64,000 nt of DNA, taken from the NCBI GenBank assembly GCA_963736005.1, contig CAVTNB010000001.1:928001-992000 (forward strand), read 5' to 3'. The notes below the pieces were generated by a model. That model was not told where the DNA came from. It ran no database searches and was given only the letters and a program-made list of their open reading frames with translations. The translations under genes and the position numbers were made by a program. Position 1 is the stretch's first letter. Every line of letters starts with the position of its first letter. Source of the stretch: an uncultured Pseudomonadota bacterium. Lineage in GTDB: Bacteria; Vulcanimicrobiota; Vulcanimicrobiia; Eremiobacterales; Eremiobacteraceae. Shown piece by piece: positions 37,680 through 55,237 of this stretch.

Positions 37680-38054
37680 GTGAAGAAACTTCTGTTTCGT
37701 CCGCACTTCGCTGCAGTGGTTGCAACCTCTGGCCTCATCCTGACCGCGGCGTTGATCTTCGTGGCCAAAGCGGCTGACAATTGCGACATCGATTGGGGAT
37801 CGGCTCAATATCGCGGTGCAGTGTCGGATTGCGAAACAAGTGCGACGGTCGGGTTAGCGAAGGCGGGCTTCGACCAAATTCAAACCGGCGTTCATACCAA
37901 TCACACATCGATCTGGGGCTACCATGGCAATTACCGCGCCCTTATCTTATGCACCAAGGCAGATAGCGGCGCCACCTACGCTGAGATGGTGATTGGACCG
38001 ACGGGCAACGAACTCGATTCACTGTTCAAAGCCGTCGACACTGACTTTAAATAA
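37680..38054 (+). CDS. Small secreted Cys-containing protein
   Basis: GAGGAGG RBS, GTG start, signal peptide ending AKA. Confidence 0.7.
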   Translation: MKKLLFRPHFAAVVATSGLILTAALIFVAKAADNCDIDWGSAQYRGAVSDCETSATVGLAKAGFDQIQTGVHTNHTSIWGYHGNYRALILCTKADSGATYAEMVIGPTGNELDSLFKAVDTDFK

Positions 38055-38064
38055 ACGATAAGGG

Positions 38065-38215
38065 GGGCGACTTTTAAAGTCGCCCTTTCCGTCCGGCAGG
38101 TGGGTTTGCGCCCCCACCTTCTTCGGTCGTGGGTATTGGTGGAATCACGGGCGGGGGGTCGTTCATTGTAGCCTGGCCTTTCGTCAATGGGGCGATTTTC
38201 CAATCGCCCCCTACA
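38065..38215. repeat. REP cluster (D at 38065, C at 38189) between convergent genes
   Basis: GGGCGACTTTTAAAGTCGCCC; GGGGCGATTTTCCAATCGCCCCCTACA. Confidence 0.75.
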
Positions 38216-38223
38216 GCTAGATT

Positions 38224-39376
38224 CTATTTGTCTTGCGCGTAGCCGGCTGGGATGTCGAAGAGCGAAACATCGGCGGCGGTGAGCTGGCGTATGTTCCCGC
38301 GCTGGGAAAGTTGCAGGTAGTTTGCGGGCAACGCCTGCGGTCCTCCGCCACCTTGGAAGCGCTGCATCATCGCGGCCGGATCGATCGTGTTGCCTGACTC
38401 CGGTTTTTGTGCTGCGGCAATCGCGTCGCGCACGACGGTAACGAGTCGGTAGACGTACATCTGGCCGCTCGGTACGCGGCGTTCCAGAGACCTGGCGATT
38501 GATTGTTGCAGAGCAGCCGTTCGGGAGCGCCAATGTATCGAGTGACACTTCCTTCGACTGCGCCACAGGCTCTGGGAGCTGCGCGAGATATTCGAGCTTC
38601 TTTGCCCGAAAGGTACCGTCTTGGCACGTTCCGGAGCTGCCGGTGAGCGTCACGATTGCTTCGGAACTATACCCGACGACTGGCTGGCTGTCAACGGTCT
38701 GGGTATCAGCTTGGCCAATAGAAAGCATCGAGTTTGCCGTCGCCTCACCAGTTAATGTCGGCGCACCGGCTACGGTGTTTTGCTCGGTCTGAACCGGCGC
38801 GGTCATGTCGTAGGTGCGATACGTCTTAGCCTGCACATCGATAAAAACCACCTGATGCTGATCGGGTTTTGTAATAATGATCGAACTGGCGGTCTCAACG
38901 CGCGTCCAACCGTTGTAAAACGCGTAGCGGGTGAGCACCGGTGGCTTGGCCCCCGCAAGCTGATCCATCATGGCCTGCTGCTGTTTCTTGGCTTGTTCCA
39001 TTTGTTTCTTCGCTTGACTCATCGAGAAGATCGTACCAACGACCGGAATCATGTCGACTGCCATCTGTCCTAAGTTCGGCCCTCCCATCCCGACGTTCAT
39101 CCCGCCTGATGCATGTTGTGCATCTATGGCTGCTTGAACTTCATCCGCGAACCCTGTGATCGGGGGTGGTGTTGCCGTGCCTGCGAGGGTGCGATCGACT
39201 TGATCGAAGGCGATATTGAGTGGCGCTGGCGTCTGAGCCGCTGGTGTCAGCGTTGCCGCTGACGCCGGTTGTCCTGCGGCGCCTGGGCTCGTGGGATCGG
39301 CATTCGCCAGCGCCACCGTCAAGAGACAAAGAGCGGTAGCAATGGAAGCGATTCTCGCAAGCATGTACTGCCTCAA
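38224..39376 (-). pseudogene. Secreted DUF4412-like protein with apparent frameshift near 38476
   Basis: Main ORF turns to non-protein-like sequence after QVSGTP; another frame gives VPSGQMYVYRLV..SLFDIPAGY, matching the paralog C-terminus. Confidence 0.7.
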
Positions 39377-39735
39377 TTCACTGTTACAGCCACCGATACG
39401 GTTTGACCGTTCCCATCACTCACCTTGATGGAGCACGTACCCGCGGCGACTGCCGTTACCATGAACGCGTTCGTGGTCCCGTTGACCGGAGCAACGCTCG
39501 CAACGTTGACGTTCGTGGTCTGAGCGCTGAAAAACGAATTGCCCGATTCACTTGCCGTGATGGTCTGTTGGCTGGATGCGCCGCTTGTCTGCATTGTCAA
39601 ACTTTTTGGCACCGTCGTCAAGGGCGGAGTTGGGGTCGGCGAGGGGATGAGGTTGAGGGGGTTCAGAGCACCGCCCAGACCGCATCCGCCTAGCAGAAGC
39701 GCCGCCGCGAATATAGCGAAAAGACTTACTTTCAT
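39373..39735 (-). CDS. Small lipoprotein with Ig-like domain
   Basis: MKVSLF..LGGC lipobox, PSPTPTP, VTAVAAGTCSIKVSD. Confidence 0.75.
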   Translation of the reverse strand: MKVSLFAIFAAALLLGGCGLGGALNPLNLIPSPTPTPPLTTVPKSLTMQTSGASSQQTITASESGNSFFSAQTTNVNVASVAPVNGTTNAFMVTAVAAGTCSIKVSDGNGQTVSVAVTVN

Positions 39736-39845
39736 GTTGTCTACGGCCGGCTCACGCCAACCGTCCTCCCTGTCTCGACTATAGGGCCAGCCGCTTGGTG
39801 GCGACATCCGGGGAACCTCGCAACGTCGCCCGCAAGAAGAGCGTG

Positions 39846-39907: not shown

Positions 39908-42900
39908 GTGCTCGATCTTTTCCCCCCAACCGAACAGCAGCTCGCCGTCATCAATCATCGCGGGAGCAACATGCTCGTGCTTGCCGGGCCCGGGACCGGC
40001 AAGACGGAGACTCTAGCCCGCCGCTTCGCGTCGTTGGTCGCTGATGGGGTACCGGCCAATCAAATCCTTGTCTTGACTTTTTCGCGGCGGGCCGCCGAGG
40101 AAATGCGGGATCGCGTTCTCTTGCGGCTGCGGCAGCTTCGCCGGACGAGCCTGGCAGTCTCGGAGCTCTTCGTCAAGACGTTTCACAGCTTTTGCGCGCG
40201 ACTGCTCGATGGTGATGACGTTCGAATGCCGAGGCGCGCCTTGCTGACGCCCGTGAAGGAGAGACTACTGTGGCGCCGACTGATGCGCGCAGGGACCCTT
40301 AATTTCGAATCGTTCGACAGGGGCGTTGCCGAGAGTCCGCAGTTCGCCACAGACTGCCTCAATATTATTGGCCAGTTGAAAGGGCGAGGAATCTCCCCAA
40401 ACCATTTCGCCAGCATTGCTCGCAGCGACCCCCGCTTGCGCGATGTAGCGATGGTCTTCGAACGCATGGAACGCGAGCGCGAGCGTTTGGATTTGCACGA
40501 TTACCGAGATCTTGTCAACGAGGCCGATCGCGAACTGCGAGCTGCCGACAGCAAGGCCGCCCGCTGGCTGCGCGGATCTCGCTTCCAACACATTTTAGTT
40601 GACGAGTTTCAAGACAGCGACCTCATGCAACTACGCTTGCTCGAGGCGATGCGTGCCGGGGTCGAGCCGGAGCCCTGCTTTTGCTTTGTGGGTGACAAGA
40701 ACCAATCGATCTATCGGTTCCGTGGGGCATCGCCGGACAATGTCACTCGCGCGGCCGATCGGTTCGCCTGCTCGACGCTTTTGTTGCATGATAACCGCCG
40801 CTCCGCACCCGTCATTCTCGCGGTAGCCAACGCCGATGACAAGCTCGATGACGCCTCCAAAACAAAAGCGGCCGATCCGACCAAGGCTGGCGGCATCCGT
40901 TTTGTGCGCCCGCTTTCGCTCGAGGACGAAGTGCAGTTTCTCTGCGAAGCCATAGGAGAAAAAGTCGCCGCGGGTATTGCACCTCGAGCCATTGCCGTCT
41001 TGCTGCGCCGAACGCGTCCGTATCAGCAACTTATCATCAGCGCGTTGCACGAAGCAGGAATTCCGGTTGCCGTGCAACCCACGGCAGGCTTCCATGAAGA
41101 TGCGCTCATCGATTCCGTGCTGACGGCGCTTCATCTTCTCGCTGCGCCGCTGGACTCGAGTCTGTGGCAGCGCTTGCTCAACAATCCGATTGTTGGCTAC
41201 CGCCCTATTGACGTCTGCTATGCCTTCGACGCCGGACGCCGCAATGGACTTTCCGACCCACACGCAATGCTGACGAGCAACCCACCGCAGGGCGTGCGAT
41301 CGATTCACAGTTTTCTTGACGCGTGGCGGCGCTGCGTGCACGCTTACGATCGCGGCGAGCCACTCGAACTGCTCCAGACAATCGTGCATCAACTCGATCT
41401 TTTACGGCCAGTCCGCGAGAGCTCTCGAGTCGACGGATTCGACCTCGATGCCTCACCGGCGCGACTGCAAACGTTGCTTCAGGCAGCGGACGACTATCGA
41501 GAGATCGAGAGTGGGCGGACGTCAGATATCATCGCAGAGTTTATGGAGCATCTCGATGAGACCGTCGGCTTGCTTGAAGACGCAAACCAGCCGCCGGGAA
41601 ACGCGGTCGCGGGCGTACGGGTCATCTCCATTCATGCTGCCAAGGGATTGGAATTCGATTTCGTCGCGATTCCTGAGTTGCTCGAGGGCATTCTGCCAGC
41701 GAGCGAGCGGCCCAATCGGCTGCTGTCGCGGCGCAGCATTGCCACGTTACGCAAGGCTGGTGCGGACATTTTTGTCGACGACGATGAAGCACGCAGTGAG
41801 GAACACTCGCTATGGTATGTTGCGCTGACCAGGGCGCGTTCGGAAGTTCTGACGACCGCCGCGCAAGTGGACGACGACGGCGTGGACCTGCAACCATCGT
41901 CATTCGCGAGGGCGATCGAAAAGGTCGAGAGCGTCGAGAGCAAGGAGAGCGGACCTAAAGGTCCGCTGCTCCACAGGCCCGGGGCGACTTTCCAATCGCC
42001 GCCTACAGCGGTAGTACCCATAAAGTTGCCGATTGAGGCGTTATCGCCCAGTAGCATCAGTAACTTCGTCGCCTGCCCGCGGCGCTTCTACTATGGAGAC
42101 GTGTTGCGACTTCCTCGACGCGATGATGACGCGACCCTGTATGGCCGGCGACTCCACACGATCCTGCGACGCTTTCATGAAATCGAGACTGATTTCGAGC
42201 ACGTCGACGATCCGCTGGTTGCGGCTGCGCGCTACGAACGCACGTTGCGACGAATCATCGTCGAGGAAGATGGTTTTGGCGAAGTTGGTTTGAGCCCGCA
42301 AGAGCGCTTCGAACGCGACGACCTTATGCAACGCCTTACTCAGTATGCCGGCGCGCTCGCGCGAGAAGCCGTGACAAGTCCTTTTCGAGTGCTGGCATGC
42401 GAGAGGTCTGTGGCATCGTCCTTCGACGGGTTGACGATTCGGGGAATGGTCGATCGCATCGATCGGCTCGCCAGCGGCGAGTTGGTCATTCGTGACTACA
42501 AATCGGGGCGCTGCAAAGGCCTCCTTGCGACCTCATTGCGCAACGCGTTCGAGCAGTTAGATTCGGGAGAAATGCTGCTTCGGGGACGCACCCGAGGGCT
42601 TGAACGTGCAGACCATTCTTTACATTCCGGGAGTCGAAGAAGCGTTTGGCGCGCGGGTGCGGCGGCTCGATTACCTCTACTTTCGAGGCAAAGGAGCTGA
42701 CGACAGCCAGCTCCGGTATGATAGTACTGAGATCCTTGACTCAGACGCGCCATCAACAGGCGCAAACGAACTGAGCCGACACGACATTGCCAGAGCTCGC
42801 CGAGACATCGCCGTGAGGATTGTGGAACTCTGCGGCGATGGCAGCATGGCCGCCTTCTCGACGGCGCTCGATGAGAGAACCTGCATGTTCTGCGACTTCG

Positions 42901-42938
42901 TACGTATTTGTCCGGGGGCTGGGGCAATCCCGGCATGA
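39908..42938 (+). CDS. UvrD-type helicase with PD-(D/E)XK nuclease (AdnA/AddB-like); apparent frameshift at 42561-42600
   Basis: AGPGTGKT, TFHSF, VDEFQD, VGDKNQSIYRFRGA, IHAAKGLEF, YVALTRA, GMVDRID, DYKSG; C-terminal CMFCDFVRIC in another frame ends in an ATGA overlap with the next gene. Confidence 0.85.
41948..42007 (-). repeat. Two REPs (B and C) in frame within the helicase-nuclease linker
   Basis: AGCGGACCTAAAGGTCCGCTGCTCCA and GGGGCGACTTTCCAATCGCCGCCTACA encode SGPKGPLLH..GATFQSPPT. Confidence 0.85.
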
Positions 42939-45900
42939 GCCTAGCCGGCACGATCGCGCTCACCAGCGCGCAGCGCAGCGTCGTCGAGCACCCGCTCGGC
43001 AAACCTGGAGTGGTCGACGCAGGCGCGGGTACCGGCAAGACCTTTACCATCGTCGAGCGAGTCGCCGCGCTTGACGAGAGCAAAACGTGCCCGGCAGACA
43101 AAATTTTGCTGCTCACCTTTGCGCGAAAAGCTGCTGCAGAACTACGCGCTCGGATCGCGCGGCGGCTCAACGATAGGACTCCCACCTGCTCGACTTTTCA
43201 TGCGTTCGCTTGGAGCATTTTATCTTCGCACGCGTACGACGTCGGGATCTCTCCGGAGACGACTATCCTCGAGGATGCTGACGCTCGCGTGGAGTTCCAC
43301 AAGGCTTTCGACGAATTCTTGAACGATCCCAAAGCAGCGGCTAGCGGGTTCCCATTGCGCGCCTTCAATGGCGAAGAAATCCGAACTGCGCTCTTTAGCA
43401 TCGATCAAAGACTCAAGCAAGATGGGATATCCATCGCAGCCTTTCGAGAGCGGGCCTTGATAGCGGCTGATGTTTTTGGCGCCGTTCGCTATCGCGAGTT
43501 ACTCGAGCCCTATCGCCGTGCACAGCAGGGGAAGACTCACAGGATGGCCGCGCAGACCGACGACGACGCACTTCAACAGGAGATGGCGTGGGAGAAAGCG
43601 CGCATCGAGGCATGTGCGGACATTCTTGCACGCTTCGCCAAGCGTCTTGACGCGCGAAACGCGCTGACGTATGCGGACATTTTGGTGCGAGCAGAGAGAG
43701 CGCTCCGCGAGAACGATACCCTACAAGTTGACCTTCGCCAGCGGTATCGTTGCTGCATTGTTGACGAGTACCAAGATACCGACCGTGCGCAACATCGACT
43801 GCTTGAGGCACTTTTTGGTCCGGGACTCGCATCGGTCATGGTGGTCGGGGATGCGTTACAAAGTATCTTCAGCTTTCGTGGAGCGCACCCGGAGAACGTT
43901 GCGGTCTTCGCACGCGCGCCTGAAGCCGTGCGTTATGCGCTCGTCGAAAACCGCCGATCTCGACAGGAGATCCTCGATCTCGCGTACGCGTCGGTCGCCG
44001 TTGCCCACAACGACGCGCAAGCGCTTCGCGGCGAACGCGGGCACGCGGGCGAGCAGATCGTCCACCTGACAAGTCTTTGGACGCCCGATGCCACTCGCTA
44101 TCTCCCCGCCGACGAAGCACGCACATTTGAAGCGACGGCAGTTGCACAGCGCATTCGCCAGTTGCTCGCAAGCGGGCAAACCGTTCGTGTGGGTGAGAAC
44201 AGCGAGCCCATATCGCCTCGTCACATCGCCATCCTCTCGCGCACGAAGAAAAACGTCCAGCCGGTAACGCGCGCGCTGCTCGACGCTGGGGTCCCGTTCA
44301 AACTCGTCGGCGGCGTCGGCTTTTACGAGGCGCCGGAGATTCGTGACGTTCTTGCCTGGATACGACTGCTCGCGAATCCATTTGACTCTCTGGCGGTGGC
44401 ACGGGCCTTGCAGTCCAGCGCGATCGGTGCTTCTGATGCCACCGTCGCTCAGCTGGCTCGTGGCAGCAGCCGAGACGAGACGGCATTTGCACGACGGGCA
44501 TTGATCGAAGACCTCCCCGAAAGCGGATTCGATGCGCCAGTCCGCGAGGCGGCGCTCAAAATGCGCAGCCTCTTGGATGCTCTCGCACCGCACGCCGCGC
44601 TGCCGCTCGTTGGCGCGCTTCGTGCAGTGCTGGAGGCAACCGGCATCGAGCGCGAGTACCGCGATGGCCACGGGCCGCGCGCCGAACAGGCTGTGGCGAA
44701 TCTCATGAAGCTTGAGGCGCTGGCGCGCTCGTTCGTCGCGCAATCGCCGGGCGCGCAACCTGCCGATTTCGTGAGCTTTATGAACGAACTCGAGCTCGTC
44801 GACTTCGACGAGCGAGAAGCTGACGTCTCTGCGAGCGACGCCGTTACGATCGCAACGATTCACGCGGCCAAGGGGCTTGAGTGGCCATTTGTGTTTGTGC
44901 TCGGGGTTTGGCCGAAGCTTCCCAACGAGCCAAGGCTCTTTATGGACGAGAAAACCGGGGCGCTCCTTTACGCCGAGAATCCCGACGGTTCGCGTTCGTT
45001 TCATTACGAGAGCGTGACTCGCGGAGCGGACGAGCAAGGTTTTGTCCCGCGCAAGGAGAGCGGCAAGGAAAACCCAGAAGAGCGTCGGCTTTTGTACGTC
45101 GCGCTCACCCGAGCTCGCGACCGCTTGTTCATCAGCGGGTTACGCTTTAAGCCTTCGAAGGCGCATCCTGATGGGAAGCCCCATGACTACATCCAAGAGA
45201 TCTACGATTGGCTGAGCGCACGGGGTTGGGTTGCAGACGAGTTCTTACCTCCGGATGACCCAACGGTAGTCCCAAAATTTTCATCGCTTGACCGGCCGCC
45301 AGCGACGCAAAGCTCTTCGTCTCAGCCAACACAATTAACGGGGATTGGCATGTCAGCATCCGCGCGAGAGACCACGCTTGCCCTTCCTTTGTCATACTCG
45401 CTCGTCGCTCGGTTTGAGCGATGTCCACGCCAAGCAACCTACAAACTCATGCTGCGCCTACCGGAAATCAGCGAGAACCAAAAACAAAAGCGGCGCGAGC
45501 TGCGCACCGAGGAATCGCTCGATCCGAGCGAGATGGCAGCTCCAGATTCGTTGCTTGGAGCAGGCGAATACGGTCAGATGCTTCACAAAGCGCTCGAGCT
45601 GTGGGCGGTCGACAAGCGCAACAAGGCTTCCGTGAAGAGCGCAGCAGCATACCTTGATGATGCCGCTCGCTTGCTCGCCGTCGCAATACCCAACAAGCAG
45701 CGCGATGAGGCCCAGTCGGCGTTAGAGAGGAGCATGCTCGAGCTGCGCGAGTGGCAACCCGTACACATCGAAGCGCCTTTTACCCTGGATTTCGGGGAAG
45801 AGGGGAGGCCGCTTTTGGTATCTGGGTACCTCGATCTCCTCGCGCGCACTACCGACGGTCAAGCGTGCTTGATCGATTACAAGACGGGCGACCAGACAGC

Positions 45901-46171
45901 CGATCATGCCTTGCAACTCGCGCTGTATAGGTGTGCCGCGGATGAGGTCTACGGAATGAAGAATCCAGCGTGTTTCGTCGGCCAAATTGACGGCAAAGAC
46001 TTTACCCTGCGGCGCGTTGAGCCTGTCGCGTCTGCGGAGTTGCGCGCGCGCATTCTTGCGGTCCGCGACGGACTACTTGCTCGCGAGGATCGCGCCATAG
46101 CGGGAGTTTGGTGTTGGACGTGCGGCTACCGCGACGCTCCCTGCCGCGATTATCGGGCGGCGCACAAATAA
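42935..46171 (+). CDS. UvrD-type helicase with PD-(D/E)XK nuclease (AdnB/AddA-like)
   Basis: AGAGTGKT, VDEYQD, QSIFSFRGA, IHAAKGLEW, EERRLLYVALTRA, GYLDLL, DYKTG, QLALY, CWTCGYRDAPC. Confidence 0.9.
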   Translation: MSLAGTIALTSAQRSVVEHPLGKPGVVDAGAGTGKTFTIVERVAALDESKTCPADKILLLTFARKAAAELRARIARRLNDRTPTCSTFHAFAWSILSSHAYDVGISPETTILEDADARVEFHKAFDEFLNDPKAAASGFPLRAFNGEEIRTALFSIDQRLKQDGISIAAFRERALIAADVFGAVRYRELLEPYRRAQQGKTHRMAAQTDDDALQQEMAWEKARIEACADILARFAKRLDARNALTYADILVRAERALRENDTLQVDLRQRYRCCIVDEYQDTDRAQHRLLEALFGPGLASVMVVGDALQSIFSFRGAHPENVAVFARAPEAVRYALVENRRSRQEILDLAYASVAVAHNDAQALRGERGHAGEQIVHLTSLWTPDATRYLPADEARTFEATAVAQRIRQLLASGQTVRVGENSEPISPRHIAILSRTKKNVQPVTRALLDAGVPFKLVGGVGFYEAPEIRDVLAWIRLLANPFDSLAVARALQSSAIGASDATVAQLARGSSRDETAFARRALIEDLPESGFDAPVREAALKMRSLLDALAPHAALPLVGALRAVLEATGIEREYRDGHGPRAEQAVANLMKLEALARSFVAQSPGAQPADFVSFMNELELVDFDEREADVSASDAVTIATIHAAKGLEWPFVFVLGVWPKLPNEPRLFMDEKTGALLYAENPDGSRSFHYESVTRGADEQGFVPRKESGKENPEERRLLYVALTRARDRLFISGLRFKPSKAHPDGKPHDYIQEIYDWLSARGWVADEFLPPDDPTVVPKFSSLDRPPATQSSSSQPTQLTGIGMSASARETTLALPLSYSLVARFERCPRQATYKLMLRLPEISENQKQKRRELRTEESLDPSEMAAPDSLLGAGEYGQMLHKALELWAVDKRNKASVKSAAAYLDDAARLLAVAIPNKQRDEAQSALERSMLELREWQPVHIEAPFTLDFGEEGRPLLVSGYLDLLARTTDGQACLIDYKTGDQTADHALQLALYRCAADEVYGMKNPACFVGQIDGKDFTLRRVEPVASAELRARILAVRDGLLAREDRAIAGVWCWTCGYRDAPCRDYRAAHK

Positions 46172-46182
46172 ATTTCGGGCCA

Positions 46183-46208
46183 GGGCGACTTGACAGTCGC
46201 CCGCTACA
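46183..46208 (-). repeat. REP family D whose GTAG supplies the cupin stop codon
   Basis: GGGCGACTTGACAGTCGCCCGCTACA; minus-strand TAG at 46204-46206. Confidence 0.8.
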
Positions 46209-46659
46209 TCTTCATTTTGGAGGCGGTCTTCGGGTTATCGCGGAGCGCCGCGAGCTCTTGACCTGTCAGCGCGCGTGGCCGATCCCGCTTCGCATCAACG
46301 ATGCACAGAAAACCGAACGGCTCGTCCGCGCTGTTGACGAATTGATGCGCAGTTTCGGGAGGCACGTAGATGTGATCGAACGGTTCGATCTCGACGACGC
46401 TGCCGCCGACGATCGCATAGCCTTGACCACGAACGCAGATCACCGAGTGAATGTGTTCGTGGCACTCCAGGCTCGTAAAGCCATCTTTGGCAACTTCGAA
46501 ATAGCGAACATCGAAATGTCCACCTTCTTCTCTCCCTTTGATGATATGGCGAGCCGTGTCGCGCCAGGAGCGGCCCGCGCCGTCCGAGTTTTCTGAGGCG
46601 TAGCTGGATGCCGCAACGCCTGACCAGCTAAACGATTTTTTGTCGAATTTCTTTTTCAT
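46204..46659 (-). CDS. Cupin resembling methylthioxylulose-5-phosphate methylsulfurylase (R. rubrum Rru_A2000-like)
   Basis: FSWSGV, VRYFEV..GFTSLECHEHIH, HQF, FGFLCIVDAKRDRP; family recalled from memory. Confidence 0.7.
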   Translation of the reverse strand: MKKKFDKKSFSWSGVAASSYASENSDGAGRSWRDTARHIIKGREEGGHFDVRYFEVAKDGFTSLECHEHIHSVICVRGQGYAIVGGSVVEIEPFDHIYVPPETAHQFVNSADEPFGFLCIVDAKRDRPRALTGQELAALRDNPKTASKMKM

Positions 46660-46677
46660 CGATTCTGCACGATCGCC

Positions 46678-47739
46678 TTAGGGATAGACAATCACTTTTA
46701 AGGCTTCATCTGGGCTTTTTAAGGCGGCATACGCCTTCGCCGCTTCGTCAAGGGAAAAGCGATGGGTGAAGAGCGGTTCGACGGCGAGGCCGCCGTTGAG
46801 CAACTCGAGCGCCTCGCGCGTATCGTCGGGTCCGGCCGAATAGCTCATGACGATGTTGACGTCTCGAAAGAAAAGATCGTTGACGTCGATGTTCCACGGC
46901 TCGCCGGGCGCAAGCGGCGTAAAGACCACAATGGTGCCGCCCCGCGCAACACATGAGCTGGCCGTTTCCAGCGCAGCTTTGGAACCAGGCGTCACAAAGA
47001 CGATTTCGGCGCCTTCGTCATTGGTCAGCTGCATCACTCGCTCGCGCAGAGGCGTGCTGTCGACGTCGATCGCCGCATGCGCCCCGAGACGTTCCGCGCG
47101 CTCGAGGCGCGCTGGAACGCGGTCTGCGCCGAGCACCAATTCGGCACCCTGCGCACGAGCGACGAGCATGTGCAGCATGCCCATGGCGCCAAGGCCGATG
47201 ACTAAAACCCTATCGCCTCCCCGCATGCCGGAGCGGCGCACCGATTTCACAACTGTCGCGAGGGGCTCGATGAGCGTGGCTCTCTCGTCACTGAGGGCGG
47301 ACGGTAGGCGCAGAACATCATGGAGCACGCTCGCCCGGGGGACGACGGCGAACTGCGCGAGCGCACCCGGCGCCAGGCGCGTTGCCCTCCACGTTTCGCA
47401 TTGGACGTAGTCCCCACGGCGGCAACGCCTGCACGTCATGCATGGCGCATGGTGATGAACGAAAACGCGCTCGCCAACGGCGAACGATGGCGCGCCGTTA
47501 GCGGGCTTCGCACCATCGCCGCATGCGGCTATTTCCGCGACCGGCTCATGCCCCAAGACGAAAGGGGCTTTTGCGTCAGCATACCACTGCAACGTCTCGC
47601 TCCCGCACAGTCCACAGGCCCGGATGCGGACCAGCAGTTCGCCTCTTTGGGGCGGCGCGAGAGGCAGGTCGCGGATGACAACCTTGCCTTGGCCTTCGTA
47701 GACTGCGGCTCGGGTTGTTCTTGGGAGGGATGCGCTCAT
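46678..47739 (-). CDS. Zn-dependent medium-chain (polyol-type) dehydrogenase
   Basis: CGLCGSE, LGHE, HHHAPCMTCRRC...C, IEP, GLGAMG. Confidence 0.9.
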   Translation of the reverse strand: MSASLPRTTRAAVYEGQGKVVIRDLPLAPPQRGELLVRIRACGLCGSETLQWYADAKAPFVLGHEPVAEIAACGDGAKPANGAPSFAVGERVFVHHHAPCMTCRRCRRGDYVQCETWRATRLAPGALAQFAVVPRASVLHDVLRLPSALSDERATLIEPLATVVKSVRRSGMRGGDRVLVIGLGAMGMLHMLVARAQGAELVLGADRVPARLERAERLGAHAAIDVDSTPLRERVMQLTNDEGAEIVFVTPGSKAALETASSCVARGGTIVVFTPLAPGEPWNIDVNDLFFRDVNIVMSYSAGPDDTREALELLNGGLAVEPLFTHRFSLDEAAKAYAALKSPDEALKVIVYP

Positions 47740-47741
47740 GA

Positions 47742-48785
47742 TTAGATCCAGGCCGGGGCGGCATCGCCTGGAATGAGCGCGTATTTGAACCCGGTGCGAC
47801 TGTCGAGCCGCGCAAAAGCTTCTGCTAGCGATGCCAGCGGCAACACCTCGGAAATGAGTTCGCGCGCGGGCACGATACCGGCAATCATGAGTTCGCGAGC
47901 CCTGCGGACATCCTCAGGCGTAAAATGAAAGCTGCCGAGACAGGTTAGCTCTTCGTAATGCATGCGCGTCGCGTCGAGTGGAACGTGGGTGCCCTTCGGT
48001 AGACCACTAAAAAAGAGCACGCGCCCGCCAGGGGCCACAAGGCGTACCGCCTCTTGCCAAGATTCGGGCGTCCCGCCGCATTCAATGACGGCCGGGAACG
48101 AAGCGGCCAGCTCCATTGGTACCGAGTCAAATCCCGCCGCGACGGTGCGCTTTGCGCCAAGTCGGGCCGCCAATTCCAAACGCTGTTCGTGGCGTGCCAC
48201 AACGGTCGTCGCGATGCCGGCATGTTTGGCGTAGGCAAGATGGAGCAGCCCGATACTACCAGCACCGACGATCGCGACGCTCTCGGGTACGGGCGAGCGC
48301 GCATCGGCCCGTTCGAGCACGCTCCATCCATGCACGACGCACGAGAAGGGCTCTAAGAACGCGGCTTCGATGTACGAAAGCTGCTGCGGCTTCGCAAAAA
48401 GATTGCGCGCGACGATGTGAGCGGGCAAGCGAAGAAAATCCGCGTACGCGCCTAGTGCCATTCCTTCGGTCAGTCGTTCGCAAAGATTCTCCCGATCAGC
48501 CTGGCAGCGCGGGCACGATCCGCACGGTGCAGTTTGCACCCACATGACGGCATCGCCGACGGCGACACTCTCGACGCCCTGGCCGACGGCCACAATATCA
48601 CCCGAGGCCTCGTGTCCGAAGGGGCCAAAGGCAAGCTTGGGGTGTCCGCGGCGGTACGTCTTTAGATCGGTGCCGCAGGTCAATGCTGCACGAATTTGCA
48701 CGATAACTTCGCCGCTGCCGGGCTGCGGCAAAGGCTGCTCGTGCCACTCGAGCGTCTTGGGCGCAGACAGTACGGCTTGGCGCAC
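47742..48785 (-). CDS. Zn-dependent medium-chain (polyol-type) dehydrogenase
   Basis: TCGTDLK, FGHE, CGSCPRC...C, LEP, GAGSIG; GTG at 48785 just after the upstream stop. Confidence 0.9.
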   Translation of the reverse strand: MRQAVLSAPKTLEWHEQPLPQPGSGEVIVQIRAALTCGTDLKTYRRGHPKLAFGPFGHEASGDIVAVGQGVESVAVGDAVMWVQTAPCGSCPRCQADRENLCERLTEGMALGAYADFLRLPAHIVARNLFAKPQQLSYIEAAFLEPFSCVVHGWSVLERADARSPVPESVAIVGAGSIGLLHLAYAKHAGIATTVVARHEQRLELAARLGAKRTVAAGFDSVPMELAASFPAVIECGGTPESWQEAVRLVAPGGRVLFFSGLPKGTHVPLDATRMHYEELTCLGSFHFTPEDVRRARELMIAGIVPARELISEVLPLASLAEAFARLDSRTGFKYALIPGDAAPAWI

Positions 48786-48787
48786 GC

Positions 48788-50425
48788 TTAGATTTCCCAT
48801 TCCCAGGGATTCCACAACACGCTCACAGCGTGCGAGGGTTTGAAATTCTTGAAATCTGTGTTCAGTGCGCTGATTCGCCTGACAAAGTACATGAAGATCG
48901 TTGGCTCTTCGTCGACGAGGATTTCCTGGATCCTATAGTACGCAGCTTTGCGCGTTTGTTGATCGTTCGACGCGAGTGCGATCTGCTCTTGAGCATCGAG
49001 TTCGTGGTTGCAAAAATGATAGAAGTTTTGACCAACCGGCGGGAACTGGTCGCACATGAACTGCGTGGAATCATCCGGGTCGGCGCCATTGAACCAACCC
49101 AGAAAGGCGACGTCAAACTTGCCGGTTTGCAGCGTGCCCCCGCCGCCGTAGGTGGCGAAAAAGATGGGGCCGGCAACGATCTTAATGGAGACGTCAACAC
49201 CGACGGCCTTCCAATTCTGCTGGACAAAGATGCTATCTGAGCCGCTGCCGGTTGGAGTCGTAACTAATTCCACATGCAAGCGCTGCCCATTGCGGTAACG
49301 GTAACCGTCACTGGCCAACGCCCAACCATCTGCTTCCAGCATGCGTGCAGCGAGCTGTGGGTTGTAATTGTATTGTCGCAGACTCGGATCGTGCGCCCAA
49401 AGAAAGGTGGGCTGATCGCTGTCTGCGAGTAAGGGGGTGTTGTGATAGACCTTTTTAAGCAGCGTGATTCTGTCGAGACCGTAGGCAAGCGCCTGACGCA
49501 CGGTCTTGTCTGCAAGCACAGGGTTGGTCAGATTGAGGGCGATCTGGTCGTAGGCAGTCAGGGGAGTGCGATATAGTCGGATGCCAGGGATGGTCTGCAA
49601 CGCCGGAGCGTACTCGTATGGCATCGCAAACTCAGCGTCGACCTCATGCGTTCGAAGCTGGGTCATGATCGTGTTTGCGTCGGGAATGAAGTGCCAGTCG
49701 ATTTCTTTGATTTTGGGTGGTCCGCGAAAGTAGGTTGGGTTTGCCACGAACTTGATCATGCTGCCGTGATCGTAGCGCTCGACGATGAAGGGCCCTGTGC
49801 CGATGGGGTGATTGTTGTACGGCACGCGGTTCATGTCTTGATACTGCGATAGGAGATGTTTGGGTATGATCTCGATTGGCGTCCCACCCATGGAAAAGAA
49901 CGCCGAGAGAAATGGCGCGTACGGCCGGTGAAGGTGAACGTGGATGGTCTGGTCGTCGATTTTGTCGATGCGGGTGATGTCGTCATAGCCGACACGGCTA
50001 GCGATGTTGTTTCTCGGGTTCATGATTTGGCGCCAGGAAAAAATAATGTCGTCGGCCCCGAAGGGGGCCGCGTCTTGCCACGTGACGCCTTTGCGAAGGT
50101 GGTACGTGATCTCGAGGCCGTCCTTGCTGATATCGCCGTTTGCAAGCGTCGGGACTCGCGTCGCAAGCTCGGGGACCCACTGGTTGTCATTGTTGAAACG
50201 AAAGAGGTATGCGCCCCACAAGAGAGAGAGGTCGACCTCCGCTTGTTGGTTCCCAACCATCGGGTTGAGGTTATCGGGTTCGTCGAGCGCGGCCACACGC
50301 AACACGCCGTGAATCGTCCACGGATTTCCCGGTTGGCTCGTGGTTGTCTGCGTCGAGATCTTGGTGCAACCCACGCACAGGACAGCGAGGACACCAATCG
50401 CGCAGAGGACAAGCGATCGCCTCAT
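48788..50425 (-). CDS. ABC transporter substrate-binding lipoprotein, family 5 (peptide/nickel)
   Basis: Lipobox VGC, ITYHLRKGVTWQD, PIGTGPF, VRQAL. Confidence 0.92.
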   Translation of the reverse strand: MRRSLVLCAIGVLAVLCVGCTKISTQTTTSQPGNPWTIHGVLRVAALDEPDNLNPMVGNQQAEVDLSLLWGAYLFRFNNDNQWVPELATRVPTLANGDISKDGLEITYHLRKGVTWQDAAPFGADDIIFSWRQIMNPRNNIASRVGYDDITRIDKIDDQTIHVHLHRPYAPFLSAFFSMGGTPIEIIPKHLLSQYQDMNRVPYNNHPIGTGPFIVERYDHGSMIKFVANPTYFRGPPKIKEIDWHFIPDANTIMTQLRTHEVDAEFAMPYEYAPALQTIPGIRLYRTPLTAYDQIALNLTNPVLADKTVRQALAYGLDRITLLKKVYHNTPLLADSDQPTFLWAHDPSLRQYNYNPQLAARMLEADGWALASDGYRYRNGQRLHVELVTTPTGSGSDSIFVQQNWKAVGVDVSIKIVAGPIFFATYGGGGTLQTGKFDVAFLGWFNGADPDDSTQFMCDQFPPVGQNFYHFCNHELDAQEQIALASNDQQTRKAAYYRIQEILVDEEPTIFMYFVRRISALNTDFKNFKPSHAVSVLWNPWEWEI

Positions 50426-51330
50426 CTCGACCCCCTTGGCTCAGCAACCTGAACGCCAGCGGCCCGCTCGTAGAGTTGCGCGACCGCGCTGTAATCGAAA
50501 GAACCCAAGCCTTGCGAGGATGCCTTGGTATATTCTTGATAAGCAAGCGTGGAGCTTGGCATGGCCACGCCAGTTGCTTTTGCGGCTTCAAGGGCGGCGC
50601 TCAGATCTTTGCGGAGGAGATCGAGGGCGAAGCCGCCTTTGTGCACGTCGGCAAACCATGCTTTCGGCAACCATTGTTCGAGCAGATAATTCGACGCGGT
50701 GGCCGTTTTTAAGACCTCGCGCAGCACTTCGATGTTGGCGCCGGCTTTTTTCGCGAAAACCAATCCTTCAACGTTGGCGAGCATGATGTTTGCAATGATA
50801 ATCTGATTGACGAGTTTGAATGTCTCGCCCATCCCAGCAGGTCCGACATGCGCCGGCTTCCCCATGGCTGACAGAACCGGTTGGGCGCGGGCAAACGTCG
50901 CTTCGTCACCTCCGACCATGATCGTAAGCTCGCCTGCCTTGGCGCGTGCCGGGCCACCCGATACCGGCGCGTCGAGCATGCGCAGATTGCGCTGTTGGAG
51001 ACGCTCGTGAAACGAGCGCGATGCGACTGGAGAAAGAGTGGACATGTCGACGACGATGCCGTCTTCGTGCAGCCCGATCGCCGCGCCAGTGTTCCCGAAG
51101 AGCGCTTCCTCCACTTGCGGAGCGTCGGGTACCATGGTGATCACGACGTCACTTCCGGCGGCAACATCGGCTGGGTTTTCATCTTCTATGGCACCCTGTG
51201 CGATGAGGCGAACGATAGGCTCTCGGTTGATATGCGCGCAGATGCGAAGCGCGAAGCCGGCACGCAACAGCGACTCGGCCATGGGTTCACCCATCGTGCC
51301 TACGCCGACAAAACCCACATTTTTTATCAC
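50422..51330 (-). CDS. Beta-hydroxyacid dehydrogenase (2-hydroxy-3-oxopropionate reductase family)
   Basis: GFVGVGTMG, VDMST, DAPVSGG, KLVNQ, KDL. Confidence 0.9.
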   Translation of the reverse strand: MIKNVGFVGVGTMGEPMAESLLRAGFALRICAHINREPIVRLIAQGAIEDENPADVAAGSDVVITMVPDAPQVEEALFGNTGAAIGLHEDGIVVDMSTLSPVASRSFHERLQQRNLRMLDAPVSGGPARAKAGELTIMVGGDEATFARAQPVLSAMGKPAHVGPAGMGETFKLVNQIIIANIMLANVEGLVFAKKAGANIEVLREVLKTATASNYLLEQWLPKAWFADVHKGGFALDLLRKDLSAALEAAKATGVAMPSSTLAYQEYTKASSQGLGSFDYSAVAQLYERAAGVQVAEPRGSR

Positions 51331-51503: not shown

Positions 51504-52925
51504 TTAGCCGCCGCCGGCGCCCACTCGATCCGCCCTGGGCTCTACCATGAGCGAGGGATCGAGGATCTTTTCAAGCTCCGCCTCGCTGAGCTTGGTCCGC
51601 TCCCGCGCGACTTCGCGTATCGTCTTGCCGGTTGCGGCCGCTTCTTTGACGATCGCCGCGGCGGCGTCGTAACCAATAATGGGCGCGAGCGAGGTTCCAA
51701 TGGCTAGGCCGCGCTCGACCATTTCAGGACCGCGCGTCGTCGCCTTCAGGCCATCGATCGTTTGCACTGCAAAATTGCGCGCTGCGGCCGCCAGCAGTTC
51801 GATCGATTGCACGAGATCGTACGCGACGAGCGGCATCGTCAGGTTGATTTCGAAATTGCCGCTTTGACCGCCGACCGTGATCGCCGCGTCGTTTCCGATC
51901 ACTTGCGCGCAGACCATGAGGACTGACTCCGCGATGACCGGATTGACTTTCCCGGGCATGATGGAGGAACCAGGCTGCACGGCAGGCAGATCGATCTCGC
52001 CCAGCCCCGCACGAGGGCCCGAACCCAGCCAGCGCACATCGTTTGCAATCTTTGTCAGCGACACGGCGATGGTCTTGATGGCCCCGCTGGCCGCGACCGC
52101 ATTGTCCAGCGAAGATTGCGACTGAAAGTGATTGCTGGTTTCATGAATCGGCAAAGCGGTGAGCGTCGCCAATCGCGCAGTCGTTCGCTTCGCGAATTCC
52201 GGGTGCGTGTTGATGCCGGTGCCCACGGCGGTGCCTCCCAACGCCACCTCCGATAGTTCGGCCTGGGCCTGCTCCACGCGCGCGATGCCGCGCTCGATCT
52301 GACCCGCGTAGCCCAAGAACTCCTGGCCGAGACGAATTGGAGTTGCATCCTGCAAATGCGTGCGCCCGGTCTTGATGATGCCCCAAAATTCTTTTGACTT
52401 GCGGTCGAGCGATACTTTGAGGATGTGGAGCGCCGGCAGGAGCTCTTCTTTAATCGCGAGCGCCGCAGCAAGATGGAGCGCCGTCGGAATGACGTCGTTG
52501 CTCGACTGCCCGAAATTGACGTGGTCGTTTGGGTGCACCTTCTTCGCCTGGACGTCATCGCCGGCATGCGCGGCTCGATGGGCGATGACTTCGTTCGCAT
52601 TCATGTTCGTCGACGTGCCTGAGCCGGTCTGAAAAATATCAACCGGAAAATGCTCGTCGTGCTTCCCTTGTGCGACTTCCTCGGCGGCGGCGGCAATTCG
52701 GGCGGCGATCGACTTGTCGATGAGCCCAAGCTCGGCGTTGGTCTGGGCGGCAGCCAGTTTGATGAGGCCTAAAGCGCGGATGAACCGGCGCGGCAAGCGC
52801 ATGCTGCTGATCGGAAAATTGAGGACGGCTCGGTGCGTGCTGGCCCCATACATGGCCGATGCGGGCACCTGCATTTCGCCCATGGAGTCACGCTCCGTGC
52901 GGGTACCGATGCTCTTGTCCTTCAT
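51504..52925 (-). CDS. fumC: Class II fumarate hydratase
   Basis: FQTGSGTSTNMNANE, HPNDHVN, GRTHLQDATP, GSSIMPGKVNP. Confidence 0.93.
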   Translation of the reverse strand: MKDKSIGTRTERDSMGEMQVPASAMYGASTHRAVLNFPISSMRLPRRFIRALGLIKLAAAQTNAELGLIDKSIAARIAAAAEEVAQGKHDEHFPVDIFQTGSGTSTNMNANEVIAHRAAHAGDDVQAKKVHPNDHVNFGQSSNDVIPTALHLAAALAIKEELLPALHILKVSLDRKSKEFWGIIKTGRTHLQDATPIRLGQEFLGYAGQIERGIARVEQAQAELSEVALGGTAVGTGINTHPEFAKRTTARLATLTALPIHETSNHFQSQSSLDNAVAASGAIKTIAVSLTKIANDVRWLGSGPRAGLGEIDLPAVQPGSSIMPGKVNPVIAESVLMVCAQVIGNDAAITVGGQSGNFEINLTMPLVAYDLVQSIELLAAAARNFAVQTIDGLKATTRGPEMVERGLAIGTSLAPIIGYDAAAAIVKEAAATGKTIREVARERTKLSEAELEKILDPSLMVEPRADRVGAGGG

Positions 52926-53023
52926 TATACCTACTCCGCAAATGTCCGATGACTATAGGGGGAAGCATGCCGTTCGTCACTGCGCGCGACGTGCTCCTGG
53001 GAATGAGGGCGACAGAGGTCGCG

Positions 53024-54565
53024 ATGCGAGACACCGAGCCGAGCAATTCTGGGTCTTTGTTCGAGTTTAGCGAGCCTGGCGGCAGCAAACATTGGGTTGC
53101 CACGCCCGGCAAGCAGACGACGTTCCCTCTTTCCATCCGTAACGAGACGGGCGAGGGGCACGACGTCACCGTCATCGTCGAAGAGCCAGCGAATTGGGCG
53201 TGGGCCGATCCCCATCGGGTGACGCTCGATCCCGGCAATAGCACGACCGTTTCAATCGTTTTCGCCCCGCAAATGGAAACCACCGTGGCTGCTGGAGTGC
53301 ATCAGGCTGCAATCCGGCTGCGCGACTTGGAAGGCGTCATTTTTGCGGAGTGCGTGCGTCCATTTGAAGTTGAAGAACGCCAAGAACTCGCGATGACCGT
53401 GACCCTACGGGGTCCGCTGATGAGCTTCGGCATGGCTGAGGGGTTCGTGCTCCACTGCACGCTCGAGAATCGCGGGAATGTCGACGTCAGCGTGACGCCG
53501 GTGGGAGATCCGCATCCAGCCTTGACGTTTAGCAAGCGCACTGTCTCTGTGCCATTCCAAGGTCAAGTCGCTTTCGACATCGAGGTGCGGTGGAATGCCG
53601 CGCGCCGCACGAACCATCCCGATGTCGTGAGCTTGCGCGCGCGATATCGCGACGGAGAAGCGTGCGCCTCAATTCAATGGCGCTCCATCGGCGAGGCGCT
53701 GGAACCATTCATGCCGATCTATTCGACCGCGGATGAGGAAGACGAGCTGCTTTCGCTCTCATGGCTGCCTCAACCGGGCGAAGACGTCCTCAATCGCAAG
53801 GTCCCGGATTTCGTACCCGAAGAGTCTGAAACCGAGAGCATTCAGTTGGCGGCCTCGGTGCCCGATCAAAACGGTGCGGGAGAGGCAGCCATGGCGCCCT
53901 CAGCCGCGCCAACCGGACCACCACCCGAGATCGCAGCCGCCCGCCGCGCCGCTGCGCACGCGCCTGCCAAGCGGATCAGCCCATGGTGGCCCGTCTTTCA
54001 GTACCTCAGTGGCAAATGGCGGGCCAAGCCGCTTCCCATTCTCATGTTGATCATTGCGGCTGAGGGGTTCGTGATCGGCATGACGCAGGCGCAGCGCGAC
54101 TATTATGCATCTCCAGAGCTGACGAGCCGAGTACCCACGATCAACCGTGCGTTTAGCGCGAGCTCTCATGCTGCGTCGGCGCTCCTAGGGTTCGGCAAGA
54201 AGGCGATTGCCGTGACCATCACGGAGGGTGGCAAGCTCGCACGCGACCTTCACTTTGGCAAGCATGCGACCGCGGCGGCGCTTGTGTCCGGACCGCCGGC
54301 GCTGTGGGGCCTCTCGGCGCATTACGAGACTCCTCGCGCGATGGTGGTCTCGTTCAACGAGGTGCATTGCTCGAATCTCATGCTGCTCGTCGCGTCTGGC
54401 CGCAAGATCATCTACCACAAACATTTGACTGACACGACAGCGACAGTTCCGATTCCCACAGGATTGACCGAACCCGTGCGTGTGACGGTATCGGCGCAAG
54501 CGCCTGGAGGCCTCGAGCTGCGACAGCACGTCTATCTGGCGCCCCCCTTCGCAACCCGCGGCTAG
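53024..54565 (+). CDS. Membrane protein with N-terminal Ig-like repeats
   Basis: Two repeats of the IRNE/LENRGN Ig-like pattern, acidic/Pro linker, one TM helix; start uncertain. Confidence 0.6.
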   Translation: MRDTEPSNSGSLFEFSEPGGSKHWVATPGKQTTFPLSIRNETGEGHDVTVIVEEPANWAWADPHRVTLDPGNSTTVSIVFAPQMETTVAAGVHQAAIRLRDLEGVIFAECVRPFEVEERQELAMTVTLRGPLMSFGMAEGFVLHCTLENRGNVDVSVTPVGDPHPALTFSKRTVSVPFQGQVAFDIEVRWNAARRTNHPDVVSLRARYRDGEACASIQWRSIGEALEPFMPIYSTADEEDELLSLSWLPQPGEDVLNRKVPDFVPEESETESIQLAASVPDQNGAGEAAMAPSAAPTGPPPEIAAARRAAAHAPAKRISPWWPVFQYLSGKWRAKPLPILMLIIAAEGFVIGMTQAQRDYYASPELTSRVPTINRAFSASSHAASALLGFGKKAIAVTITEGGKLARDLHFGKHATAAALVSGPPALWGLSAHYETPRAMVVSFNEVHCSNLMLLVASGRKIIYHKHLTDTTATVPIPTGLTEPVRVTVSAQAPGGLELRQHVYLAPPFATRG

Positions 54566-54597: not shown

Positions 54598-54665
54598 ATG
54601 TAGTCGCGCGAATTCATTCGCGTGTCAATTTGGACACGGTCGCAAATAAATTTGCGACACTACAT
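54598..54665. repeat. Inverted REP family A doublet (REPIN-like)
   Basis: ATGTAGTCGCGCGAATTCATTCGCG...GTCGCAAATAAATTTGCGACACTACAT between convergent genes. Confidence 0.8.
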
Positions 54666-55237
54666 TATGTCGGGAGAGGTTTGCCTGGGCGGCGGAAGGT
54701 CAAGACCTCCGTGCCGATAGGAAGCTTCGGTACGATCTCGCCAACAAACCCAAGCGCGCCCGCAAGAGACGGAGCATCCAGGCCCGATGCGGCTGCAACG
54801 TCTTCGTAGTACACACCGAAATGGGGGAGAGCGTGTGCATCGACGAACTCGGTCGCCAACGCATCGAAATCCTCATCATCCGATCCGCCAGCTTCAAGCG
54901 GCTGGCCTTCCCAGTATTTGGTAAACGACCAGGTGCCTTCTGCATCGCTGTACGTCAGCAACAGCGCCTCGGTCTGCAACAGTTCGGAGAGGCCTTCTGC
55001 CAGACCGCCGTCGTCCAGCGAACGGCTGTCCTCGAGCACGGTGACCCAACCGTCATGTTCTGGCATGAGAGCAAAGCTGCGAATGCGTTTGTGGGCCGTC
55101 GACGTGTCTGGGGTCGGCTCGAGTCCTCGCTCGCTTGTCGGCAGACGCTCGCTCTCGCTCATCAGCTCGATCAGTGCCTGGCGCACGCGGCTGAAATCAA
55201 CATCGCGAACGTAGACCGTGCTAAAGTGAAAGCCCAT
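54665..55237 (-). CDS. Acidic hypothetical protein
   Basis: 190 aa, starts 5 nt after the ProDH stop. Confidence 0.7.
   Translation of the reverse strand: MGFHFSTVYVRDVDFSRVRQALIELMSESERLPTSERGLEPTPDTSTAHKRIRSFALMPEHDGWVTVLEDSRSLDDGGLAEGLSELLQTEALLLTYSDAEGTWSFTKYWEGQPLEAGGSDDEDFDALATEFVDAHALPHFGVYYEDVAAASGLDAPSLAGALGFVGEIVPKLPIGTEVLTFRRPGKPLPT

Follow-up and report, generated by a model that had tools for sequence, protein, structure and literature searches.

We describe here a cluster of three genes, coding for two distinct Zn-dependent medium-chain dehydrogenases/reductases (MDR1 and MDR2) and a cupin of the Rru_A2000 family, in a genome of the Eremiobacterota (alternatively named Vulcanimicrobiota). 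The cluster lies in a window of 64,000 nt, which spans positions 928,001-992,000 of the contig CAVTNB010000001.1 (assembly GCA_963736005.1) and whose own numbering is used for all coordinates below. With moderate confidence, we propose that the three genes specify a version of the MTA-isoprenoid shunt (MTA, 5'-methylthioadenosine) that is independent of the RubisCO-like protein (RLP). A sequence-only reading of the window had raised the possibility that the pair of dehydrogenases replaces the RLP, thereby linking the salvage of by-products of S-adenosylmethionine (SAM) to isoprenoid synthesis. This idea is now well supported by comparative genomics, with a chemistry that we infer throughout: the exclusion of the RLP by the pair, the depletion of class II aldolases in genomes that carry the pair and the strict coupling of MDR1 with MDR2 all favor it.

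Phyletic distribution of the cupin and its partners

We searched 201 Eremiobacterota genomes, the host (G000) included, gene by gene and then tallied the results. Orthologues of the cupin were recovered in 124 genomes (five weak matches, with E of 1e-8 to 1e-12, were dropped), those of MDR2 (E <= 1e-55, 37-73% identity) in 125 and those of MDR1 in 128. Both dehydrogenases are present in 125 genomes, which amounts to co-occurrence in 125 of the 128 that have either, the other 3 possessing MDR1 only. RLP-type matches of 44-180 bits are present in 28 genomes, leaving aside ten whose matches are all form-I-like, and MtnA is present in 194. Of the 124 genomes with the cupin, 108 possess the pair, 13 possess an RLP and 3 possess MDR1 alone, and not one of them combines the pair with an RLP; indeed, neither dehydrogenase occurs in any of the 28 RLP genomes. 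Thus, as partners of the cupin in the Eremiobacterota, the pair and the RLP exclude each other. The RLP gene adjoins that of the cupin in 6-7 of the 13 genomes with both, three of these loci being confirmed by Pfam. Counted by genus, the cupin is accompanied by the RLP in about 8 genera and by the pair in about 30. In 15 other genomes of the host's own family, RuBisCO-family matches were found in two, both of them form-I-like (~450 bits) rather than RLPs.

The class II aldolases show a comparable trend, being found in 26/125 genomes with the pair versus 64/76 of the remainder, such that 99/125 pair genomes lack one. Only 5 genomes have MtnA with none of the pair, the aldolase or the RLP, and three of those are 64-75% complete. 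From these tallies we conclude that the pair occupies the place held by the RLP or the aldolase in other genomes. The co-occurrence anticipated by the sequence-only reading is hence borne out, both in the 108 of 124 cupin genomes that carry the pair, none with an RLP, and in the absence of the aldolase from most pair genomes.

The host assembly (2.84 Mb in 6 contigs, 84% complete) codes for MtnP (345.7 bits, cut-off 306), MtnA (362.8 bits, cut-off 279) and DXR of the methylerythritol phosphate (MEP) pathway (390.9 bits, cut-off 315.7). At this level of completeness it yielded no match to PF00016, that is, no RuBisCO or RLP, and none to PF00596, that is, no class II aldolase of the MtnB or Ald2 kind. 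Its mtnA gene is located after ribBA-ribH. The frame of this gene (G000:C3:83368-84280) is broken by one frame shift near the 3' end, which could be a sequencing error in the long-read assembly or a real lesion.

The pattern seen in the Eremiobacterota recurs in the Nitrospirota and in 10 genomes of other phyla. Among 101 Nitrospirota genomes the cupin is found in 28, and MDR2 orthologues (E <= 1e-89) in 26, all 26 of which also have the cupin; a further set of proteins at 34-37% identity (E 1e-60 to 1e-70) looks paralogous and was left uncounted. In each of the two Nitrospirota cupin genomes that lack MDR2, an RLP gene adjoins the cupin gene. In other phyla, all five genomes with adjacent MDR2 and cupin genes gave no match to PF00016, and all three with a lone cupin and no RLP (from Kryptonia, Thermodesulfovibrio and Blastocatellia) code elsewhere for an MDR2 orthologue of 40-43% identity. 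Both genomes in which an RLP is present, those of Anaerofustis and a cyanobacterium, have only MDR2 paralogues of 30-32% identity. In Binatia the MDR2-cupin gene pair has no MDR1 gene beside it; nevertheless, MDR1 orthologues are present elsewhere in the genome in 5/5 cases, namely three Binatia, Thermodesulfovibrio and Blastocatellia.

The three proteins and the reactions proposed for them

The open reading frames and Pfam matches confirm the layout given by the sequence-only reading, with gaps of merely 2 nt between the MDR2 and MDR1 genes and 18 nt between those of the cupin and MDR2. MDR1 and MDR2 each combine ADH_N and ADH_zinc_N domains (Pfam E 1e-20 to 5e-23) and, at 31% identity to each other, are as divergent as it had stated. 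The motifs it had named (TCGTDLK; CGSE and HHHAPC) are seen in the translations, as ALTCGTDLK in MDR1 and as CGLCGSE and VHHHAPCMTC in MDR2, while CG(S/T)(E/D), GHE, CxxCxxCx7C and G(L/A)G are shown by both, in keeping with a Cys/His/Glu site for the catalytic zinc, a lobe of four Cys for the structural zinc and the GxGxxG motif. Judged by sequence, both are Zn-dependent MDR proteins of the polyol-dehydrogenase branch. Among solved structures, threonine, sorbitol and ketose dehydrogenases resemble them most, and none of the NCBIfam equivalog models (threonine 3-dehydrogenase, galactitol-1-phosphate 5-dehydrogenase, IolM and others) matched either protein above its cut-off, the best scores being 150.5 bits for MDR2 (cut-off 458) and 128.2 bits for MDR1 (cut-off 380).

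In Rossmann folds an Asp at the end of strand beta-2 is the mark of NAD-type enzymes. Such an Asp is found in at least 95% of 76 MDR2 orthologues. The corresponding position of MDR1 displays Ala/Gly followed by Arg/His/Lys in 25 of 30 orthologues, with Asp in 2/30 and Gly/Ala-Leu-Glu in 3/30; in the MDR1 of the window, Ala-Arg replaces the acid. By this motif, MDR2 looks to be NAD-type and MDR1 NADP(H)-type. Reduction with NADPH followed by oxidation with NAD+ is the classic way of driving a polyol-type isomerization in one direction, and the two enzymes considered here have the same opposition of cofactor motifs.

The cupin recovers the solved structures 3ibm (E 1.3e-25), 3jzv (5e-25; 91.5 bits over cupin residues 8-146) and 3kgz (2e-23), with the next match only at 2.6e-5. 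The depositors of 3jzv named it 'uncharacterized protein Rru_A2000'; there is no NCBIfam model for the cupin. All 28 columns invariant across an alignment of 26 family members are retained in the window protein. These include RYFE, LE-H-H-H, HQF, GFLC and RD-P, whose residues we take to be catalytic, and the printed alignment with 3jzv has these motifs in common. The likeness to Rru_A2000 that had been claimed from motifs therefore holds, the motifs being found as VRYFEV, TSLECHEHIHSV and FGFLCIVDAKRDRP, and we assign the cupin to the Rru_A2000 family on the strength of its match to 3jzv and its conserved residues.

The known MTA-isoprenoid shunt, along with its cupin's role, is documented in PMC5893883. 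[quoted passage not shown] It differs in using an RLP, whose genomic and phyletic place is held here by the two Zn dehydrogenases, and in its cupin, the one in the window belonging to a different clade.

Under our proposal, MtnP and MtnA would provide MTRu-1-P from MTA and, likewise, 5-deoxy-D-ribulose-1-phosphate from 5'-deoxyadenosine. One dehydrogenase, probably MDR1 with NADPH, would reduce the C2 ketone of MTRu-1-P to a 5-substituted D-arabinitol-1-phosphate, and the other, probably MDR2 with NAD+, would oxidize C4 of the pentitol phosphate. The product after renumbering would be MTXu-5-P (1-methylthio-D-xylulose-5-phosphate), or DXP itself if the starting point were the 5-deoxy sugar; the cupin would then strip the methylthio group from the thio compound, leaving DXP to enter the MEP pathway and a methanethiol equivalent to go to methionine. 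By our own reasoning with Fischer projections, a shift of the carbonyl of D-ribulose-1-phosphate from C2 to C4 via D-arabinitol-1-phosphate should give D-xylulose-5-phosphate. The substrates, the polyol-phosphate intermediate, the assignment of the steps, the cofactors and whatever thiol or reductant the cupin uses are all elements that we infer. As the pair alone could yield DXP from 5-deoxyribulose-1-phosphate, the proposal would also account for the occurrence of the pair without the cupin in 17 genomes.

Parts of this scheme have parallels in other systems. Known MDR-type arabitol-phosphate dehydrogenases take arabitol phosphate to xylulose-5-phosphate and can reduce the latter back again (PMC6685057). 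As described, the E. avium APDH and B. methanolicus AtlD are, like MDR1 and MDR2, Zn MDR proteins of the polyol branch, and the proposed geometry of ribulose-1-phosphate, arabinitol-1-phosphate and xylulose-5-phosphate is alike. They differ in acting on a 5-hydroxy substrate, as against the 5-methylthio or 5-deoxy substrate proposed here, and there is no phosphotransferase system or sugar regulon near the pair in the window. The dihydroxyacetone phosphate (DHAP) shunt (MtnP/MtnN-MtnK, MtnA and Ald2) has in common with our proposal its first two steps, the branch-point MTRu-1-P/5-deoxyribulose-1-phosphate and the capacity to take both MTA and 5'-deoxyadenosine; its aldolase yields DHAP and an aldehyde, whereas no class II aldolase was found in the host, where the carbons would instead stay together in DXP. 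Engineered 'nDXP' routes, which employ YajO or RibB mutants selected in the laboratory in E. coli, reportedly convert ribulose-5-phosphate to DXP and thereby bypass DXS. As in our proposal, DXP would there be formed from a pentulose phosphate by a reductase, albeit one of a different protein family. In the full-text literature covered, which leaves out most subscription journals, we found no paper on a dehydrogenase-based bypass of the RLP.

Gene neighborhoods and competing explanations

For the analysis of gene order, a pattern scan with one genome per species gave 355 cupin loci, the best 80 of which were combined with 20 phylum loci into a set of 100. Within 1.5 kb of the cupin gene, MDR2 is encoded in 59/100 loci, directly upstream, and an RLP in 3/100. 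The adjacency of MDR2 and the cupin was seen in Eremiobacterota, Binatia, Nitrospirota, Limnochordia and other Bacillota, Chloroflexota and bins labelled as Bacteroidota. In the reverse test, among the best 80 of 164 metagenome loci with MDR2, the cupin gene is present in 54/80 and the MDR1 gene stands directly upstream in 56/80. In two public metagenome-assembled genomes labelled as proteobacteria (L006, L007) the entire cluster is present, with proteins 72-97% identical to those of the window; their labels look wrong because the loci group with the Eremiobacterota.

The contexts of the cupin point to SAM and sulfur metabolism: it follows asd-metK-ahcY in Thermodesulfovibrionia, and is followed by a short MetE-like (Meth_synt_2) gene in some Eremiobacterota (L015-L018, L021) and by a two-domain rhodanese in the sister family (L099, L114, L115). 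The metK-ahcY-cupin arrangement was observed in L054, L056, L075, L078, L079 and L083. In the sister family we also observed the order ribD-ribE-MDR1-MDR2-...-ribBA-ribH-mtnA in four loci (L124, L126, L127, L128), and this riboflavin cluster is the sole positional link of the pair to mtnA. In Binatia (e.g., L042, L047, L051), a radical-SAM/DUF3463 gene lies upstream of MDR2-cupin, and genes for a transaldolase-PGI fusion and RpiA lie downstream.

Several observations weigh against the proposed shunt. The window cupin matches 3jzv at 91.5 bits, as against 167 bits for a cupin encoded next to an RLP in the same phylum. A tree built from 100 cupins, with an unresolved backbone, places the RLP-adjacent versions in a long-branch clade of their own (SH-aLRT 99). 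The window cupin is hence outside the clade of the characterized RLP-linked enzymes, and its substrate or chemistry may therefore differ. The mtnA and mtnP genes are both outside the window, and neither was found in any of the best 80 of 164 MDR2 metagenome loci, many of whose contigs stop inside the cluster. A class II aldolase coexists with the pair in 26/125 genomes and the cupin is lacking from 17 pair genomes, while 8/26 Nitrospirota genomes with the pair code, at another site, for a RuBisCO-family protein of higher score (160-331 bits), which rules out a strict rule that pair genomes are devoid of any RuBisCO-superfamily protein. The counts from the 201 genomes overstate the number of evolutionary events because related genomes are not independent, and they include two unpublished genomes with the cupin and the pair (G128, G178), without which 108/124 becomes 106/122. 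Finally, PMC6685057 describes an arabitol-induced operon of B. methanolicus in which an MtnA-like gene accompanies two genes for MDR proteins, so that genes of comparable kind can also be devoted to the ordinary catabolism of pentitols.

This operon lends itself to a different explanation, which we consider improbable, wherein the pair acts on ordinary pentose or pentitol phosphates and the cupin is a frequent neighbor with a separate job. An example would be a nucleoside-ribose or arabitol route from ribose-1-phosphate to ribulose-1-phosphate (by MtnA), D-arabinitol-1-phosphate and xylulose-5-phosphate. The location of the sister-family pair inside a riboflavin cluster, beside genes whose products use ribulose-5-phosphate, the transaldolase-PGI fusion and rpiA genes that follow the cupin in Binatia and the 17 genomes with the pair and no cupin would all suit it. 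However, it offers no reason for the absence of the pair from all 28 RLP genomes, for the depletion of the aldolase (26/125 versus 64/76) or for the confinement of all 26 Nitrospirota MDR2 orthologues to genomes with the cupin. Nor are sugar transporters, kinases or sugar regulators present around the pair in the annotated loci: those from other lineages have housekeeping genes instead.

That MDR2 and the cupin form the most conserved adjacency (59/100 loci), retained in Binatia without an adjoining MDR1, would fit an order of events in which the cupin acts first. It would enolize MTRu-1-P or MTXu-5-P and beta-eliminate methanethiol in the manner of LuxS, and MDR2 would reduce the resulting 1-deoxy-2,3-diketopentose phosphate with NAD(P)H to DXP, with neither an RLP nor a thiol reductant being needed and MDR1 being accessory. 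We regard this as unlikely, even as the separation of the window cupin from the RLP-linked, glutathione-dependent clade speaks for it and the occurrence of either the RLP or MDR2 fits it as well as it does the shunt. The engineered YajO/RibB routes, in which a RibB-type diketone is reportedly reduced to DXP, would be a precedent. It is, however, harder to reconcile with the presence of MDR1 alongside MDR2 in 125/128 genomes, even where their genes are not adjacent, because a need for two enzymes better fits a two-step isomerization. The NAD-type Asp of MDR2 is more usual in an oxidizing role, and the 17 genomes with the pair and no cupin likewise count against a cupin-first order.

It is very improbable that these are simply generic threonine/alcohol dehydrogenases and a generic cupin, placed next to each other by chance or inheritance alone. 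The best NCBIfam matches of the dehydrogenases are indeed threonine 3-dehydrogenase models (126-150 bits, far under the cut-offs), and searches for riboswitches and other regulatory RNAs were negative: Rfam at gathering thresholds returned nothing in the window and only an SRP RNA in eight related loci, with no SAM or FMN riboswitch to link the genes. Yet, six or more phyla retain the adjacency, two show the same patterns of co-occurrence, and HHHAPC, WY and other invariant motifs specific to the family are conserved in 76 MDR2 orthologues.

Table 1. The three genes under study and their neighbors in the window
Feature	Position	Strand	Domains and matches
Cupin, Rru_A2000 family (151 aa)	46204..46659	-	Pfam Cupin_2, E 4.7e-10; PDB matches
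MDR2, Zn medium-chain dehydrogenase with CGSE and HHHAPC (353 aa)	46678..47739	-	Pfam ADH_N + ADH_zinc_N
MDR1, Zn medium-chain dehydrogenase with TCGTD (357 aa as open reading frame 47742-48815)	47742..48785 (or 48800/48815)	-	Pfam ADH_N + ADH_zinc_N
Family-5 solute-binding protein (SBP_bac_5)	48788..50425	-	Pfam E 4.8e-80
HIBADH/tartronate-semialdehyde-reductase-like dehydrogenase	50422..51330	-	Pfam NAD_binding_2 + NAD_binding_11
Aspartate ammonia-lyase/class II fumarase-like protein	51504..52925	-	Pfam Lyase_1; NF008909, 542.6 bits (cut-off 510)
Tandem genes for two AddAB-like UvrD-helicase/PD-(D/E)XK-nuclease proteins (930 and 1087 aa)	39908-46171	convergent on cupin	

On the minus strand the genes of the string run in the order HIBADH-like, SBP_bac_5, MDR1, MDR2 and cupin (Table 1). 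MDR1 has three candidate start codons (GTG 48785, ATG 48800 and GTG 48815), of which we favor the first because alignments with homologues start at residues 9-12; it sits 2 nt past the TAA stop of the upstream SBP_bac_5 gene. The HIBADH-like gene, which overlaps the SBP_bac_5 gene by 4 nt, codes for the third dehydrogenase of the cluster (best NCBIfam score 255 bits, under the cut-off of 340) and is kept directly upstream of MDR1 throughout the host's own family. The intervening SBP_bac_5 protein, of the peptide/nickel/opine type, keeps its position only in the closest relatives, and there are no ABC permease or ATPase genes near it. The Lyase_1 gene, 173 nt upstream of the string, is a conserved neighbor in close relatives and probably a separate transcription unit. 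Scans for promoters and terminators gave counts close to the shuffled expectation. On the other side, the UvrD/PD-(D/E)XK neighbors of the cupin are retained in most relatives of the family. Four further open reading frames (52859-54565, 37976-39376, 39373-39807 and 54665-55237; 144-568 aa) could be assigned to neither a Pfam nor an NCBIfam family, and a sub-threshold ASH-domain match in the 568-aa protein is the sole hint that they gave.

Loss of DXS and wider implications

DXR is found in 196/201 Eremiobacterota genomes, and DXS scores over its cut-off in 147/201. The remaining 54/201, among them the host, comprise most of its own family, three other families almost in their entirety and a few single genomes. 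In the host no DXS was found: the DXS model scored best on a split transketolase, and tblastn with a DXS from the same family recovered only this split transketolase, at 27% identity. Looser searches for DXS in five DXS-less genomes returned nothing above 100 bits. The pair is present in 47 of the 54 DXS-less genomes and the cupin in 32, while among the 147 genomes with DXS the pair is present in 78. Seven DXS-less genomes are without the pair, including those of one genus that also lacks MtnA. Thus, the link between the pair and the loss of DXS is suggestive and not clean. The cupin does not explain this loss, a candidate explanation ruled out by one genus and one family that lack both DXS and the cupin. 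It is a doubtful, if attractive, extension of our proposal that in the DXS-less Eremiobacterota, including the host, MtnP, MtnA, MDR1 and MDR2, with the cupin as an optional component, might constitute the main or only source of DXP.

If this were true, the MEP pathway, thiamine and pyridoxal would in these organisms draw on the ribose of MTA and 5'-deoxyadenosine, both by-products of SAM, in place of pyruvate and glyceraldehyde-3-phosphate. PMC10663253 reports 181 species that miss only Dxs and leaves their substitute open; the genes described here would then give a name to one of those missing 'alternatives to Dxs'. If the proposed shunt itself exists, a step so far assigned to the RLP would have a second, unrelated solution, in the form of an NADPH/NAD+ dehydrogenase pair operating via a polyol phosphate. 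The gene set was found in Eremiobacterota, Binatia, Nitrospirota, Kryptonia, Limnochordia, Chloroflexota and Acidobacteriota, such that the route would be widespread, and it would fill a gap in the annotation of the 99/201 Eremiobacterota genomes that have no other recognizable fate for the product of MtnA. The proposal further predicts that the pair alone should salvage 5'-deoxyadenosine, the by-product of radical-SAM enzymes, to DXP. The pair and its associated genes offer a testable candidate for how the MEP pathway may run without DXS in some bacteria.

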